Source: an uncultured bacterium (lineage in GTDB: Bacteria; Patescibacteriota; Minisyncoccia; Phycocordibacterales; CAIZLB01). From it: a DNA stretch of 64,000 nucleotides. The first letter of the stretch is position 1, and every line of letters begins with the position of its first letter. The position numbers were made by a program, and so were the translations under genes. Below are positions 9,256 through 37,434 of this stretch, piece by piece. Under the pieces are notes generated by a model. The model searched no databases. It saw only the letters and a list, made by a program, of their open reading frames with translations, and was not told the DNA's origin. The stretch covers positions 11,309-75,308 of the forward strand of contig CAINHC010000021.1 of assembly GCA_903848795.1 (NCBI GenBank), written 5' to 3'.

Positions 9256-9348
9256 TTTGTAGTTGTTGTAGTTGTAATATATTGAATAATGAGTTTATTA
9301 TACCATTATTTAGTGATTATTCTCAATTACTTACTCTACCAATAATAT

Positions 9349-16862: not shown

Positions 16863-17885
16863 CTATTTATCAGATACATTCTTAACTTTCTTCTCAATCC
16901 TCTTTTGAACACTCCTGATCGTCTCCAAATAGGCTTCTTCTACTGGTGAAAGAGTTTTTACTTGATACTTCTTGTATTCAGTCTTGGCTTTTTCTAATGC
17001 TTGTTCATGACTTACGTTTCCAGAATCTTTAAGTAAACCCTTCCCATAATTTTCAGTAAATTTATCAAGTTCACTGACCCAGTCCGCCATATACATCTTT
17101 GTATGTTCTTGTGCTTTGATTTCAGCAAGATCAAAGAAGGCTGACACTAAACGATTAAGTCTAAAAAGTTCTTCTTCCGTGAGATAGTTTTTTGCAATCC
17201 CAACTTCAGAAAATACAGGTTGTGCACCAGAAAATGTTGTTAATCCCATAAAGTCCTTTTCTGCATCAGCTCGTGAATGAATTGTTTCAGCAGCAGTGTG
17301 TTTATTGGTAGCATAATGCAATTTATTTTGCACCGTTTTAAAGAACTTAATTGACTCCTGACTGTGGGGATCGTAATCCATACTAGTTGAATACAAATCA
17401 AGCACTTGACGATAGAGCACCTTTTCGCTACTTCTGATATCACGAATACGTTCCAAAAGTTCTTTCCAATAGTTTCCGCCTCCAGTACCTTTGAGGCGTT
17501 CATCGTCCATAGTAAATCCCTTGATAATGTATTCACGAAGCCTGGCTGTTGCCCACTGTCTGAAACGCGTACCCTGTATAGAGCTTACACGATATCCAAC
17601 AGATATGATTACATCGAGGTTATAGTAATTTGTAGGCTTCGTAGAAAAATCGGAAATTCCAATTTTTCTTATAGTACCGTATTCTATGAGCTCTTTTTCC
17701 GAGTAAATATTAAGAATATGTTCATTTATCGTTGAACGACTTTTATTGAATAATTCTGCCATTTGATCAATAGTAAGCCACACCGTCTCATTTTCAAAAC
17801 GGACCTCAAACTTTGGCTGACCATTGTCGCCTTCGTAAATAACTATTTCATTGTTAGATTTGTTAAATTCCATATCTTTTATCAT
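16863..17885 (-). CDS. RhuM-family protein, paralogue 2
   Basis: YNLDVIISVGYRVSSIQGTRFRQWATARLREYI...SSEKVLYRQVLDLY; ~50% identity to paralogues 1 and 3. Confidence 0.7.
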   Translation of the reverse strand: MIKDMEFNKSNNEIVIYEGDNGQPKFEVRFENETVWLTIDQMAELFNKSRSTINEHILNIYSEKELIEYGTIRKIGISDFSTKPTNYYNLDVIISVGYRVSSIQGTRFRQWATARLREYIIKGFTMDDERLKGTGGGNYWKELLERIRDIRSSEKVLYRQVLDLYSTSMDYDPHSQESIKFFKTVQNKLHYATNKHTAAETIHSRADAEKDFMGLTTFSGAQPVFSEVGIAKNYLTEEELFRLNRLVSAFFDLAEIKAQEHTKMYMADWVSELDKFTENYGKGLLKDSGNVSHEQALEKAKTEYKKYQVKTLSPVEEAYLETIRSVQKRIEKKVKNVSDK

Positions 17886-18022
17886 TCATTATCAGCAATC
17901 ATTTTATTAATAAACATCATATCAAATATATATAAAATGAGCTATTATAACTCTATACCACCCTACATAAAATAACCTTGAAAATAGGGCTTAAAAAAAT
18001 CGGCTGTGGTTACCACACGAAG

Positions 18023-19318
18023 TCAGAACCGTTTTGATGCTAGGTAAGAAAAAATAGCTGCAAGCAGACAAACAGCCCCGCCAAGTATAATAGGCATTCG
18101 TGCACCCATAGCGTCCGCAAGCCATCCAGAAAGTGGTCCGCCAACAGCACCCGATCCAGTTAAAAAGATTCCTTGAAGCGCCATCAATCGCCCGTGCATT
18201 TCTTGTTTTGATTCGACTTGAATCATTGTAGTTGTTGCTGTCATGTATAAAATACTAGACGCTCCCACAAGAAAAATAATTGGTATAGCTACTAAGACAC
18301 TAGGAGAAAGTGCGAGCATCAGCATGCTAATACCAAGCATTGTAGCACCAAAGATAATATGATTCATTTTAACTAATCCCCTACGAGCTACAACAAGGGC
18401 ACTTATGACAGCTCCGACACTAAAAACTGAATAAAGAAGTGTAAAGTTACCGATCGTACCATGAAGGCCCCTGGTTACAAACAATGGAAAAGTAGTGGTA
18501 AAATTGTATGCAATCGTTCCAATAAAAGCGAGCATGCCAAAGTTTATCGCCAATAATGGCATAGAAAAAATATATTTTATACCTTCACCTACTCTACCTT
18601 TTGTTTTAGTAATCTCTGACTTTCGATACAGTTCCGAAGGTCGCATCATCATAAGACAAATTAAAACTGCAATATAGGAAATAGCGTCAAAGGTAAAACA
18701 CCAACCAAAGCCCACCGTAATAATTAGAAGCCCCGCAATCGCTGGGCCTAATATTCGTGACAAATTAACATTTGTACTATAAAGCACCACTGCATTTGGA
18801 ATATCATGTTTAGGGACCATTTCGCTTAAGAAAGATAGGCGAAGTGGATTATCCAATGAAAGCACTATTCCTCCAACAAATGCTAATGCATATAATCCAA
18901 AGAGTGGCGGATGTGGCATAAAAGCCAAAACAGCAAGACCTACAGATTGTACCATCTCCAAACTCTGTGTCCAAATAAGCAGACGTCGCTTATCAAATTT
19001 ATCAGCAATAGATCCTGCCCACAATGAAAGAAATAGTATCGGGCCATACTGTAGAGCAGAAACTATTCCAACAGAAAGACCGCTTTCAGTAATTTTCAAA
19101 ACTAGCAAAGTAAGGGCGATTTTTGTTAGCCAATTACCAGTATTTGAAATAGTTTGTCCTATTGTGAATAACCTATAGTTGCGATTCCTGAGCGATATAA
19201 AAGTCTTCAAAAATGTTTCTTTGTATTTAGGTGGTGCAAATAGTTTTTGGTTCATATAAAAAAATGTCAAAAAAACAAGCCTCGAGATCTCCAAGTTATT
19301 CTGGATTATTCCCTTCAA
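18023..19318 (-). CDS. MFS-family transporter
   Basis: 12 predicted TM helices in MFS-typical 6+6 layout, with a characteristic loop (DKFDKRRLL). Confidence 0.6.
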   Translation of the reverse strand: MKGIIQNNLEISRLVFLTFFYMNQKLFAPPKYKETFLKTFISLRNRNYRLFTIGQTISNTGNWLTKIALTLLVLKITESGLSVGIVSALQYGPILFLSLWAGSIADKFDKRRLLIWTQSLEMVQSVGLAVLAFMPHPPLFGLYALAFVGGIVLSLDNPLRLSFLSEMVPKHDIPNAVVLYSTNVNLSRILGPAIAGLLIITVGFGWCFTFDAISYIAVLICLMMMRPSELYRKSEITKTKGRVGEGIKYIFSMPLLAINFGMLAFIGTIAYNFTTTFPLFVTRGLHGTIGNFTLLYSVFSVGAVISALVVARRGLVKMNHIIFGATMLGISMLMLALSPSVLVAIPIIFLVGASSILYMTATTTMIQVESKQEMHGRLMALQGIFLTGSGAVGGPLSGWLADAMGARMPIILGGAVCLLAAIFSYLASKRF

Positions 19319-20315
19319 TTATTTTCTTTACTTCACGGTCAAAATCAGAAATGTAATTTTTGTCCTGTTCTATGCGGTATTTTTCATATTCACCAAGCGC
19401 CAAGGATTCTGCAACCTCATGACTAATCTTACCAGCATTAGTCAATATTTCATACTCACTGAAATTAAGAAAGGCGTTGAGTTTTTCTATCCAATCCGAC
19501 ATTGTCATTGCTTTACCTCGAGATGCTTGCATTTCGGCGTAGTCTAAATACATATTACCAATACGATTTAGATGATCTAACTCATTTTTATTCAAATAAT
19601 TTTTTGCTATAGTCACGTCGCTTGGCATTATTTTACCCTGCGGATATTTACGCCACGAAGTCAAACCTAGTTTTTCCTTTTTACGGCTCACTCTTTCCGC
19701 AACAATTTCTGCCGCCGTTCTACCGGTAATAGCAAAGTGTAGTTTATTTTGCACTGTTGCAAAAAATTCCTTACTTTCAAACGACTTTGGAGAATAGTCA
19801 ATCGCTGTTGCGTATATGTCTGTAATTTTTTGATATATTCTACGTTCACTCGTACGAATATCTTGTATTTCTTCATAAAGCTCATCAAAATACCGTGCGC
19901 TAAAACGAGAGCCATATTTCATACGGTCACTATCCAATGCATAACCTTTTTGGATATAACTTTTCAAAACACCAGTTGCCCATCTTCTAAATTCTGAACC
20001 TCTTTCAGAATTAACCCTATAGCCAACAGCGATGACAAGCTCGAGGCTATAACAGACGACCTTACGAACAACCTCCCTTTTCCCCTCTTTTTGAACTACC
20101 GAGAATTCCTCGGTAGTTGCATTTTTATCAAGCTCGTTCTCATTATGTATGTTCTTAATATGAAGAGACACATTGTCTGTTGAACAATCAAATAATTCTG
20201 ATATTTTTCGTAAGGTTAGCCACATATTATTCACGTCATACAAGACCTCAATATTTACCCTACCATCTTGAGATTGATAAAACGCTATTTCATTGTCTTT
20301 TATCTTTTTTATCAT
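19296..20315 (-). CDS. RhuM-family protein, paralogue 3
   Basis: YSLELVIAVGYRVNSERGSEFRRWATGVLKSYI...TSERRIYQKITDIY. Confidence 0.7.
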   Translation of the reverse strand: MIKKIKDNEIAFYQSQDGRVNIEVLYDVNNMWLTLRKISELFDCSTDNVSLHIKNIHNENELDKNATTEEFSVVQKEGKREVVRKVVCYSLELVIAVGYRVNSERGSEFRRWATGVLKSYIQKGYALDSDRMKYGSRFSARYFDELYEEIQDIRTSERRIYQKITDIYATAIDYSPKSFESKEFFATVQNKLHFAITGRTAAEIVAERVSRKKEKLGLTSWRKYPQGKIMPSDVTIAKNYLNKNELDHLNRIGNMYLDYAEMQASRGKAMTMSDWIEKLNAFLNFSEYEILTNAGKISHEVAESLALGEYEKYRIEQDKNYISDFDREVKKIIEGNNPE

Positions 20316-20425
20316 ATTTATCCTAGTATATCATACTGATAAAAATTGTAATTTTACCCATTATTTATCTTAAAAATATAATGAGGTTGAACCTGTATCT
20401 TTCGTGTTTGAGTTGGCTGGCCCTA

Positions 20426-20463
20426 CCACACAAAATTAGAACCTTTTTGATGCTAGGTAAGAG
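20426..20463 (-). repeat. Remnant duplicate of the MFS gene 3' end (last 8 codons, stop, 3' flank)
   Basis: Minus-strand reading of 20426-20463 encodes ...SYLASKRF* followed by the ccacac flank, matching 18013-18048 at the true MFS 3' end. Confidence 0.6.
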
Positions 20464-20508
20464 TAATTTCTTTCACTTTAGTCCTGAATTTACCAGATGA
20501 TTAAATAT

Positions 20509-20967
20509 TTAAAGTCTAATTATAATATAAAACCACAACATAACCATAACAATAGACAAAATCATTGATATTATAACTTGAATTTTCTGCCACTTAGTTA
20601 GGTTTACGATAGTAAGAGTTTTTTTTGATTTACTTAATAAAATCACACAGGAAATAGCTACAATAATTATTATTGGTACAAAAATTATTAAAGCAATTGC
20701 AGAGCCAACATATACCGATGTAACTGTTAGTATCGTATAAAGGATATTTAAAATTGAAAGGACACAAACAAATATAATCTCTATATCTATTATCTTTCTT
20801 AAATTTTTATTTGCATTCTCATCTACTACAACAGGAACCTTTTGATTTGAATCTCCTTTATATATAAGTTTTTTAATTCCGAGATATAAAATGAATAAAA
20901 TTGGAAGTAAAATTATTAAAAACACAAGGCTGAAGTCTGGGCTTAAATCAGATAAAAAACTAATCAT
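20509..20967 (-). CDS. Small polytopic membrane protein, unknown function
   Basis: Four hydrophobic helices; no motif. Confidence 0.3.
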   Translation of the reverse strand: MISFLSDLSPDFSLVFLIILLPILFILYLGIKKLIYKGDSNQKVPVVVDENANKNLRKIIDIEIIFVCVLSILNILYTILTVTSVYVGSAIALIIFVPIIIIVAISCVILLSKSKKTLTIVNLTKWQKIQVIISMILSIVMVMLWFYIIIRL

Positions 20968-21109
20968 GCGTTAATAATAACATCATCAATAATCAAAGCA
21001 AGCAACATTCTATTGAATAAACTGACCTTATCACAAACCACCATGCAAGAAGTTCTGACGTTCAAGACGCTTATTATAAAAAGGCTTGAAACAAAGGCGG
21101 AAATACCGG

Positions 21110-21181
21110 CTGGGAGACTAGGAATCGAACCTAGATTAAAAGCTTCAAAGGCTTCTGTCCTACCGTTAGACGATCTCCCAA
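21110..21181 (-). tRNA. tRNA-Gln (anticodon UUG)
   Basis: The reverse complement gives a 7-bp acceptor stem GGGAGAT/GTCTCCC, T-loop GGTTCGATTCC, and anticodon loop CTTTGAA (U-UUG-A). No encoded CCA. Confidence 0.8.
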
Positions 21182-21241
21182 TGTTCTATACTTTAATATG
21201 AAATCAACTATAAATCAAGGGCTTTTGACTAACAAAGACTA

Positions 21242-21271
21242 TTGACTTTTCTGAATCAAACTTGCTATAAT
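21242..21271 (+). promoter_or_regulatory. Near-consensus sigma-70-type promoter (TTGACT-18 nt-TATAAT)
   Basis: -35 ttgact at 21242-21247, 18-nt spacer, -10 tataat at 21266-21271. No protein gene lies downstream. Confidence 0.5.
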
Positions 21272-21277
21272 AGCAAC

Positions 21278-21338
21278 ATGTAACCTCTTAAGTGAGGTCC
21301 CGAGGAAGCCACCCGCAAGGGTGGCTTCCGTTTTGTGT
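21278..21338 (+). ncRNA. Candidate ~60-nt small RNA between a strong promoter and an intrinsic terminator
   Basis: Short hairpin cctc-ttaagt-gagg, then an 11-bp perfect stem ggaagccaccc/gggtggcttcc with a GCAA tetraloop (21304-21329), then gttttgtgt. Confidence 0.4.
21304..21338 (+). terminator. Rho-independent terminator
   Basis: Perfect 11-bp GC-rich stem, GNRA loop, U-tract. Confidence 0.65.
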
Positions 21339-21508
21339 CTATCTCGCAAATGAAGCTAAGACTTTTTTAACCCTTCTAAAATCTTCAACACTCATCTCTC
21401 CAATTTTTCTAATAAATCTCTTGCTACTAATAGACCTGATTTGTGACATATTTATTGTTTTTATTACATTTTCATTATTTAAAAATTGAATGAAAAATTT
21501 ACCCTCTT

Positions 21509-21742
21509 TTAATGTACTTGTAGCGGAGCTACTAACAGTCCAAGATTATTAAAGACTTTTATAACCACCACAGGTCTTTCAAATCTATGGTTTTTACCAT
21601 TTATCTCAACACCAATATTTTGACCCAAATTTACCCACCAAATGTCTCTTACTTGGGGATATGAAAAACTCTCAGATTTATGAATACTGATTTTGAGATT
21701 ATTCCATTCGTTAAAAATTTCCGATATTTTATCATCACCCAT
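21509..21742 (-). pseudogene. PemK/MazF-family toxin, C-terminally truncated fragment with no cognate antitoxin
   Basis: RDIWWVNLGQNIGVEINGKNHRFERPVVVI...VAPLQ matches the MazF N-terminal core (GdI..v.f.p..G.E..G.RPalV...vaP.T). 77 aa against ~110 expected; no antitoxin ORF upstream. Confidence 0.45.
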
Positions 21743-21858
21743 ACTCTAATTATGGAATATTGAGTATAAAGAATTTTCTATTTTTTTATAAAGAAAATAC
21801 AAAGATTTTATTGAGCCTCTATTGCCTTAGATGTGCTGGAACCTTAGCTACCCCAACC

Positions 21859-24549: not shown

Positions 24550-24582
24550 GGGCGCGGCGGGGGTCCTCCCCGCCGCGCCCAA
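24550..24582 (-). terminator. GC-rich 13-bp perfect hairpin between the HAD gene and dus (probable terminator or attenuator)
   Basis: gggcgcggcgggg-gtcct-ccccgccgcgccc. On the minus strand it is followed by a U-rich stretch (tattgtttatct). Confidence 0.4.
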
Positions 24583-36896: not shown

Positions 36897-37434
36897 ATTT
36901 CAGGAGGTTGGCAAGGCCGACCCGGCAGCACTAGATATATCAGTCGTGTGTGCCTATGATTCAGAAACAGAGACCTATTCTAGCTACACACAAGAGGAGC
37001 TGCATAAACTATGGCCATTAATTGAACAATCCGATGTTTTGGTCACCTTCAACGGAGATCACTTTGACATCCCCCTACTCAACAAATATTATCATGGCAA
37101 CCTATTACAAAAGAAAAGCCTTGACCTACTAAAGGAAGTCAAGAAATCACTAGGCTTTCGCGTAGGGCTTGGAGTAATCGCGCAGGGAACATTGAATGCA
37201 GGCAAAAGCGCCCACGGACTTGAAGCTGTTGAATGGTGGAAGAAGGGTGAAATAGACAAAATAATCAAATACTGCTTGGATGATGTAAAAATCACCAAGG
37301 AGGTTCATGATTACGCTATCGCCAATAAGAAGCTTAAATACAAAGAAGGTGAAGCAATAATCGAATTCCCAATGGACACGAAGGACTGGGAGGATACCGG
37401 AGAAAACAAGATGAATTTCACTTTGCCATTTTAG
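36859..37434 (+). CDS. RNase H-like 3'-5' exonuclease (YprB / PolB-exonuclease-like fold)
   Basis: MRKLFFDIETRN (Exo I DxE) and FNGDHFDIPLL, typical of the RNase_H_2 / DnaQ-like superfamily. The track start at 36808 probably overextends. Confidence 0.5.
   Translation: MRKLFFDIETRNTFQEVGKADPAALDISVVCAYDSETETYSSYTQEELHKLWPLIEQSDVLVTFNGDHFDIPLLNKYYHGNLLQKKSLDLLKEVKKSLGFRVGLGVIAQGTLNAGKSAHGLEAVEWWKKGEIDKIIKYCLDDVKITKEVHDYAIANKKLKYKEGEAIIEFPMDTKDWEDTGENKMNFTLPF

Follow-up and report, generated by a model that had tools for sequence, protein, structure and literature searches.

A conserved small-RNA gene convergent with MazF-family toxin genes in Patescibacteria, probably encoding their RNA antitoxin

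MazF proteins are the textbook toxins of type II toxin-antitoxin systems and are always discussed together with protein antitoxins. The toxins known to have RNA antitoxins are limited to small peptides (type I) and ToxN-like nucleases (type III). Convergent antisense RNAs that overlap the 3' end of the toxin gene occur in type I systems such as txpA/RatA and bsrG/SR4 of Bacillus subtilis and par RNA I/RNA II of Enterococcus faecalis. The type III toxin ToxN has a Kid/MazF-like fold, and the pemK RNA motif (Rfam/Weinberg) is a candidate element of the 5' untranslated region (UTR) of Firmicutes pemK genes, lying upstream on the coding strand. Type I systems have been described in general (PMC6563280), as have the type III systems ToxIN, CptIN and TenpIN (PMC8860590); aMEF, an antisense RNA at the E. 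faecalis mazEF locus, is reported to stimulate expression (PMC8749433); and Myxococcus xanthus has a solitary MazF, a MazF homologue without an adjacent MazE gene (PMC2701414). Here I analyse a locus that resembles parts of each of these: a predicted gene for an RNA of about 60 nucleotides (nt) that converges on a PemK/MazF-family toxin gene, first noticed in 64,000 nt of DNA from an uncultured patescibacterium (GenBank assembly GCA_903848795.1, contig CAINHC010000021.1, positions 11,309 to 75,308; this whole stretch is called the window, and coordinates refer to it).

In the window, the RNA unit lies on the plus strand and its terminator meets the stop codon of an inactivated toxin gene on the minus strand. 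The parts of the locus, with the evidence that placed each of them, are as follows.

21242-21247, plus strand: -35 box TTGACT of the small-RNA promoter (consensus scan)
21263-21271, plus strand: extended -10 box TGcTATAAT (18-nt spacer after the -35 box)
21276-21282, plus strand: predicted RNA 5' end ACAUGUA (distance to the -10 box; conserved ACAU)
21283-21298, plus strand: hairpin 1, a stem of 5 base pairs (bp), ACCUC/GAGGU (DNA ACCTC/GAGGT), with loop UUAAGU (RNA folding)
21300-21304, plus strand: linker motif CCGAG, whose last G is base 1 of hairpin 2 (family alignment)
21304-21329, plus strand: hairpin 2, the intrinsic terminator stem, 11 bp and perfect, GGAAGCCACCC-GCAA-GGGTGGCTTCC (terminator scan, folding)
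21330-21339, plus strand: U-tract and 3' tail GUUUUGUGUC (terminator scan; conserved CGUUUU tail)
21339-21742, minus strand: PemK/MazF-family toxin gene, inactivated, with stop codon TAG at 21341-21339 (Pfam match to the repaired frame)

The RNA is predicted to start at A21276 or A21278, the family consensus 5' end being (U)ACAUU. Five bases separate hairpin 1 from hairpin 2, and hairpin 2 is directly followed on the plus strand by GTTTTGTGTC. The toxin stop codon, at 9 nt from hairpin 2, reaches into the U-tract by one base; this final base of the RNA's 3' tail is complementary to the third base of that codon. An initial annotation made from this DNA alone had described the promoter, its spacer, the two hairpins, the GCAA-capped 11-bp stem and the U-tract, and all of them were recovered at the same positions.

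The observation that carries the analysis is the linkage of this RNA to the toxin gene. Scanning metagenomes with A1, an alignment of 58 toxins, gave 70 loci, and two covariance models of the RNA were built, the first from six copies and the second (R2) from 50 sequences. Of the 59 distinct toxin loci that extend 150 nt or more downstream, 56 have a covariance-model match; the RNA and the toxin gene are always on opposite strands, and a median of 19 nt separates the RNA from the end of the toxin match. Each of the remaining three (L154, L156, L158) has a diverged promoter, hairpin, linker and terminator in the same layout. In 814 kilobases (kb) of control sequence, made up of the whole window and 80 dnaX loci, the second model found only the window's own RNA (E = 3.8e-14) and nothing in the 80 control loci. 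The unit is thus not orphan, as the initial annotation had it. Intact toxin homologues at 90%, 77% and 65% identity are each followed by the same convergent unit with both promoter boxes kept and with compensatory changes in the stems (GGAAGCC/GGCTTCC to GGAGGCC/GGCCTCC, and ACCTC/GAGGT to ACTCC/GGAGT), and in most loci the modelled 3' end of the RNA overlaps the toxin stop codon by 3-6 nt. Furthermore, among the distant relatives of the toxin, L166 and L171 have covariance-model matches, L167 has a partial match where the end of the contig cuts the RNA, L169/L170 show the same layout by eye with the linker CUUCGA, and L168 is ambiguous. Only about 9 of the 70 toxin loci have dnaX or tRNA-Gln nearby, and the genomic contexts are many and varied; this variety of context, together with the constant pairing, indicates that the module is mobile and that its two parts stay together. 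Judged from sequence, the element is a conserved small-RNA gene of about 60 nt linked to a toxin gene.

The structure of the RNA is supported by strong covariation among 50 distinct sequences, and the hairpins are conserved in relatives, which was a check proposed by the initial annotation. Compensatory changes on both sides were found in 15 of the 16 base pairs, and 95.7% of pair cells are standard pairs. Hairpin 1 has compensatory changes in all five of its pairs, with 97.6% of cells paired, and hairpin 2 in 10 of 11. None of 500 shuffles equalled the observed pairing, sliding the partners reduced pairing to about 50%, and RNAalifold independently predicted the same two helices. The alignment also indicates the strand. 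G-U and U-G pairs number 50 against nine A-C and C-A pairs, as expected if the plus strand is the one transcribed; the loop of hairpin 2 is a GNRA tetraloop in 30 of the 50 copies, and that of hairpin 1 is in most relatives a GNRA tetraloop closed by one extra pair. Because of the G-U excess, the GNRA loops and a U-tract found only on the plus strand, the structured RNA is assigned to that strand and not to the 3' UTR of the toxin gene. The linker CCGAG is kept in at least 48 of the 50 copies and the CGUUUU tail is conserved. A promoter scoring at least 9 of 12 stands at a fixed distance from the RNA in 43 of the 50 copies, compared with 4.5% of random 50-mers from the same loci; 41 of these 43 promoters have TTGACT or TTGACA as their -35 box, and for most family members model position 1 comes 4 nt after the end of the -10 hexamer. 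Taken together, the conserved promoter, the covarying structure and the same-strand U-tract terminator give this element what would be expected of a stand-alone bacterial small-RNA gene. This supports, at the level of sequence, the earlier suggestion of a non-coding transcription unit with its own promoter and intrinsic terminator.

Within the window alone the evidence is more uneven. The 63-nt RNA folds into precisely the two hairpins (-31.3 kcal/mol, z = -5.55, with none of 200 shuffles as good), and the unit's promoter is the top consensus match between 15 and 28 kb of the window (11 of 12 positions plus the TG extension), with the terminator listed by the same scan. Markov simulations, however, predict 2.8 promoter matches of at least 11/12 in the window, where three are observed; for such matches with the TG extension the numbers are 0.21 expected and two observed. 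The promoter match taken alone is not beyond chance, and the unit is regarded as non-random because it is conserved, with covariance-model matches beside nearly every toxin homologue. The other two matches of at least 11/12 are TTGACA-17-TATTAT at 37064 on the plus strand and TTGAGA-18-TATAAT, with TG, at 9326 on the minus strand. A repeat or a mobile-element copy was ruled out, as the hairpin occurs once in the 64-kb window.

The Rfam scan proposed by the initial annotation matched no family to the RNA. At gathering score, Rfam 15 found only tRNA in the whole window and 20 related loci, and at E <= 10 in positions 21000-21500 only chance-level matches fell over the RNA (RNAI, E = 2.6; Yar_1, E = 6.4). 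A likeness by eye to the RNA of the signal recognition particle (SRP) (AGGUCC...GGAAGC, compare domain IV of 4.5S RNA) was rejected because no SRP family of Rfam matched and the 11-bp hairpin takes up those bases.

Several variants of the RNA were seen among the other loci. Longer forms at L090/L097 (3402-3545, minus strand) and L127 carry two hairpin-plus-UCCGA(G) modules per predicted transcript, L131 combines a single module of this kind with a second terminator hairpin after it, and L128 (2875-3050, minus strand) has two tandem copies of the small RNA. In the sub-families represented by L153, L154, L156, L169 and L170 the architecture is the same and GCUCCG or CUUCGA replaces CCGAG as the linker. 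These linker sub-families may track sub-families of the toxin.

The toxin gene itself had been overlooked: the initial annotation reported no associated open reading frame (ORF), yet a frameshifted PemK/MazF gene lies on the minus strand with its stop codon touching the U-tract of the RNA. The order on that strand is dnaX (22989-21859), an ORF of 77 amino acids (aa; 21742-21509), the hairpin and tRNA-Gln (21180-21108), and dnaX ends 116 nt upstream of the toxin gene. The 77-aa ORF is the front half of the toxin gene; joined to the next frame it gives a 134-aa protein that matches Pfam PF02452 (PemK) across the junction (E = 5.7e-14). DNA alignment with an intact, 90%-identical homologue shows that a 1-nt deletion near 21524 breaks the gene, and the identical deletion is present in two further assemblies of the same population (L001, L002). 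A broken or truncated toxin gene beside an intact RNA was found not only in the window but also at L162 and L164/165. The window RNA would be a surviving antitoxin-type remnant beside a dead toxin gene, and an intact RNA next to a dead toxin is the pattern of decay that would be expected of a toxin-antitoxin pair.

The family to which this toxin belongs comprises 1,522 clusters at 50% identity (E <= 1e-10). The best solved-structure matches of its profile are B. subtilis EndoA/MazF and other MazF proteins; the Arg of EndoA (in RPVLVI) aligns with the family's conserved RP and the Thr of EndoA with a conserved Ser, and these EndoA residues are presumably the catalytic residues of MazF. An AlphaFold model (predicted local distance difference test score, pLDDT, 85) shows the MazF fold plus an additional N-terminal helix at residues 3-22. 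The best 50 listed Foldseek matches to it are all MazF-family structures (MazF, YdcE/EndoA, MoxT and similar; template-modelling score, TM, about 0.7) and none is ToxN. In the A1 alignment the extra N-terminal alpha-helix has an invariant Trp13 and Lys17, and canonical MazF proteins have no such helix; self-inhibition and RNA binding are possibilities for its role. PADLOC returned no match and NCBIfam gave only a weak MazF match. A viral origin was rejected, a search of IMG/VR having found no relatives of the toxin.

No adjacent protein antitoxin of the MazE/PemI, AbrB or ribbon-helix-helix type was found at these loci, where the upstream genes are large and unrelated. Ten small upstream ORFs have no antitoxin-type Pfam domain, and small upstream ORFs were rejected as hidden antitoxins, none having a supporting domain. 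The start of the toxin gene in the window has one further candidate element.

21749-21754, minus strand: candidate toxin -10 box CATAAT, 6 nt upstream of the toxin ATG (hexamer position)

Across loci, the position of a TANNNT hexamer peaks 6 nt before the toxin ATG, with 11 of 41 loci there; just 3 of the 41 have a motif like Shine-Dalgarno. A -10-like hexamer so close to the ATG, together with the scarcity of Shine-Dalgarno motifs, suggests that the toxin mRNAs are leaderless (window 21743-21760, minus strand; loci L097-L163). The locus shares with type II MazEF/PemIK its toxin family, the MazF/PemK fold and the Arg and Ser aligned to the Arg and Thr of EndoA. It differs in having no MazE/PemI gene upstream, the toxin gene following unrelated large genes instead, and in the extra N-terminal helix and apparent leaderless promoter of its own. 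The solitary MazF of M. xanthus likewise has no adjacent MazE, but it belongs to a different lineage and no RNA partner has been reported for it.

What, then, does the RNA do? Some neutraliser is needed for a MazF-fold toxin that keeps its catalytic residues and has no protein antitoxin beside it, and the small RNA is probably the RNA antitoxin of the neighbouring MazF-type toxin. That it acts by type-I-like cis-antisense control is a tentative proposal, to which I give slightly less than even confidence. The module would be a compact, mobile pair of genes, about 500 bp in all, consisting of a MazF/PemK-fold endoribonuclease toxin and, convergent to it, a strongly promoted gene for an RNA of about 60 nt, with its terminator directly against the toxin stop codon. 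After the shared hairpin the toxin strand reads CUCGG and has no U-run, so toxin transcripts should read through the hairpin. The 3' end of such transcripts would be complementary to the small RNA over its whole length, and an abundant small RNA could then pair with the toxin transcript up to the stop codon. Cutting or destabilisation of the duplex, for example by ribonuclease (RNase) III and then 3' exonucleases, would lower toxin synthesis. The sequences show the RNA gene with its structure, strand and promoter, its strict linkage to the toxin gene, and no gene for a protein antitoxin next to it; that the RNA is expressed, that toxin transcripts read through, that the RNA serves as antitoxin and that the duplex is cut, I infer.

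This arrangement has parallels in the 3'-overlapping type I systems of Firmicutes, in which a small, strongly promoted RNA is also convergent at the 3' end of the toxin gene, the terminator region or hairpin is also shared, and a duplex with the toxin mRNA followed by degradation is likewise expected. However, type I toxins are small and usually hydrophobic peptides whereas the toxin here is a 134-aa endoribonuclease with a MazF fold; overlap with the ORF is here confined to the stop codon; and an invariant motif, uncommon among cis-antisense RNAs, is present in the RNA.

Several considerations weigh against an antisense antitoxin. A pure cis-antisense RNA needs no fixed sequence, so the invariance of CCGAG points to recognition by a protein, possibly the toxin, and tetraloops of the GNRA type are ill suited to kissing interactions. 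Since no more than a few nt of the coding region are overlapped, an antisense effect would hinge on the inferred read-through. Duplexes between the RNA and the 5' region of the toxin transcript have a mean energy of -19.2 kcal/mol for cognate pairs and -18.9 kcal/mol for non-cognate pairs, with the cognate ranking at the median; since cognate pairing is no better than non-cognate, there is no sign of a site for translational block. It is also possible that a protein antitoxin is encoded elsewhere in the genome, and the modelled N-terminal helix could leave this MazF subfamily self-inhibited or non-toxic. Two candidate modes of pairing were rejected, namely trans-pairing with the toxin 5' region, on these same energies, and a conserved CUCGG target in toxin ORFs, which has 15 occurrences, mostly in the Leu-Gly of WWxSLGQNIG and in a minority of sequences.

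A type-III-like mode of action, in which the small RNA binds and blocks the MazF-fold toxin, perhaps as a pseudo-substrate, is a serious rival, though less likely than not, and it is compatible with antisense control. The toxin would recognise CCGAG, alone or together with the 5' (U)ACAU, in keeping with the observation that CCGAG is invariant and that ACAU and the base of stem 2 are conserved while the stems vary freely. B. subtilis EndoA, which cleaves at UACAU, is the nearest solved relative of the toxin, and its cleavage site equals the 5' consensus of the RNA. Against this, the predicted start may leave only ACAU, and not UACAU, in the RNA, and the depletion of ACAT in toxin ORFs (z = -4) is non-specific, ACAT being the third most depleted of many similar 4-mers in sequences that are not independent. 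Binding to protein would account for why no conserved complementary target was found in the toxin ORF or its 5' end, but it leaves the tight abutment on the stop codon unexplained. The loci with two-module or tandem RNAs (L090/L097, L127, L128) recall the repeat-based antitoxins of type III systems (PMC8860590). The proposed pairing of an endoribonuclease toxin with a non-coding RNA neutraliser is common to both. However, the known type III antitoxins are tandem direct repeats that lie upstream on the same strand and are processed by the toxin, whereas the RNA here is a single structured unit with its own promoter, downstream and convergent on the opposite strand, and the toxin is a Pfam PemK protein (PF02452) rather than ToxN/AbiQ, CptN or TenpN.

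Thus, as reconstructed from sequence, the module fails the definition of each type, lacking the small-peptide toxin of type I, the protein antitoxin gene of type II and the upstream repeats and ToxN-family toxin of type III. The best reading would be a new small-RNA family that serves as the RNA antitoxin of MazF-fold toxins in Patescibacteria. A more specific possibility, which I consider less likely than not, is a new class of module in which a PF02452 toxin with an N-terminal helix and a leaderless mRNA is neutralised by a single-copy CCGAG RNA and not by MazE. In such a class the RNA would bind the toxin directly and possibly also act as antisense, and a mobile module of this kind would be common across Patescibacteria, the toxin family having about 1,500 clusters at 50% identity. 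A literature search limited to open-access text, where absence is no proof, turned up neither a small-RNA module of MazF/PemK nor this RNA. The pemK RNA motif is likewise a structured RNA associated with pemK-family genes, but the RNA described here lies downstream of the toxin gene on the opposite strand and has no Rfam match.

If the antitoxin interpretation is true, a large MazF subfamily comes consistently with a dedicated, covarying small RNA in place of a protein antitoxin, MazF too has had RNA antitoxins evolve for it, and the boundaries between the classes of toxin-antitoxin systems become blurred. As far as I could find, few small-RNA families specific to a lineage have been defined in the Patescibacteria, which are uncultured and genome-reduced, and this RNA would be one of them. 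It would also account for 'solitary' mazF genes in the Candidate Phyla Radiation (Patescibacteria), and the covariance model would mark them in annotation if the RNA pairing holds.

That the RNA is linked to the toxin without being its antitoxin, and instead tunes or stimulates the toxin, acts as a sensor or trigger, or is a trans regulator hitch-hiking on the module, I regard as improbable. Linkage is what was seen, and linkage does not settle the direction of an effect; aMEF offers a precedent for an antisense RNA reported to stimulate mazEF (PMC8749433), and the single-stranded, invariant CCGAG could seed pairing with targets in trans. However, no candidate trans target was found near the toxin, a MazF-fold toxin without an adjacent protein antitoxin still needs a neutraliser, and the RNA outlives the decayed toxin gene in several lineages, as expected of antitoxins. 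The parallel with aMEF is also limited to the presence of an antisense RNA at a mazF locus: the aMEF locus is reported to be a classical type II locus with MazE, and its RNA has no relation in sequence or structure to the one here (no Rfam match). Nor is the RNA a cis-acting riboregulator, as there is no downstream gene for it to control; a riboregulator was one of the possibilities named in the initial annotation.

Very improbable, and contradicted by the comparison of loci, is the view that there is no RNA gene at all, and that the big hairpin is a terminator or 3' UTR structure of the minus-strand toxin gene with a promoter beside it by chance. It would fit the position of the hairpin, which begins 9 nt past the toxin stop codon, the roughly 2.8 promoter matches expected by chance per window, and a different GC-rich hairpin at a similar place in L012, the locus of a sister species. 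But the U-tract is on the plus strand alone, the toxin strand reading CUCGG after the stem; the excess of G-U over A-C pairs (50 to nine) and the GNRA loops favour the plus strand; hairpin 1 covaries as well; and 43 of 50 diverged loci, compared with 4.5% of controls, have the promoter at its fixed distance.

The remaining neighbour of the unit in the window lies outside the module.

21108-21180, minus strand: tRNA-Gln(UUG) (tRNA detection)

The initial annotation had named an element of this tRNA locus as one possibility for the RNA, but most loci with toxin and RNA have no tRNA nearby, and L012 has the tRNA without the RNA. In that sister species (DnaX 94% identical) the tRNA-Gln and about 40 nt of its promoter are kept and the sequence beyond is unrelated; a gene for a 140-aa membrane protein replaces the toxin gene, the promoter-hairpin unit is gone, and the different GC-rich hairpin stands at a similar place. 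Sixteen Patescibacteria relatives with dnaX/tRNA-Gln synteny have nothing similar upstream of the tRNA. It is scarcely credible that the RNA serves the tRNA-Gln locus in regulation or processing, or that it is a short coding unit (AUG-UAA, a small peptide), since, although it adjoins and diverges from the tRNA-Gln promoter in the window and has AUG-UAA near its predicted 5' end, most family members have no tRNA within 2.5 kb, L012 keeps tRNA and promoter without the RNA, dnaX-tRNA-Gln relatives lack the RNA too, and AUU replaces AUG in most family members with no ORF conserved. The AUG directly followed by UAA that the initial annotation remarked on is indeed present in the window (21279-21284), but it recurs only in the closest relatives, and the family consensus is ACAUUuUG.

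The order dnaX then tRNA-Gln is a widespread synteny in Patescibacteria (L003-L015, L024, L042; L137, L142, L145), and relatives of the window's DnaX at 94% and about 50% identity are found in Paceibacteria/Parcubacteria genomes, the window itself coming from a low-GC member of that group. In L142 and L145, and with a longer gap in L137, the module lies between tRNA-Gln and dnaX in the orientation opposite to that of the window's clade. The gap between dnaX and tRNA-Gln looks like a recurrent insertion site.

Two further features of the window were noted. Downstream of tRNA-Gln lies a strain-variable island (16863-21028) with two RhuM-family genes, a transporter of the major facilitator superfamily (MFS) and a membrane protein of 152 aa. 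Strain L002 (3400-4000) lacks this island; there, the junction sequence cttatcacaaaccaccat is the start of a 162-aa gene, of which the window has no more than the first six codons. Finally, a perfect 13-bp hairpin composed entirely of G-C pairs, GGGCGCGGCGGGG-AGGAC-CCCCGCCGCGCCC, lies on the minus strand at 24550-24580, between a Dus gene and a HAD-like gene of this AT-rich genome.

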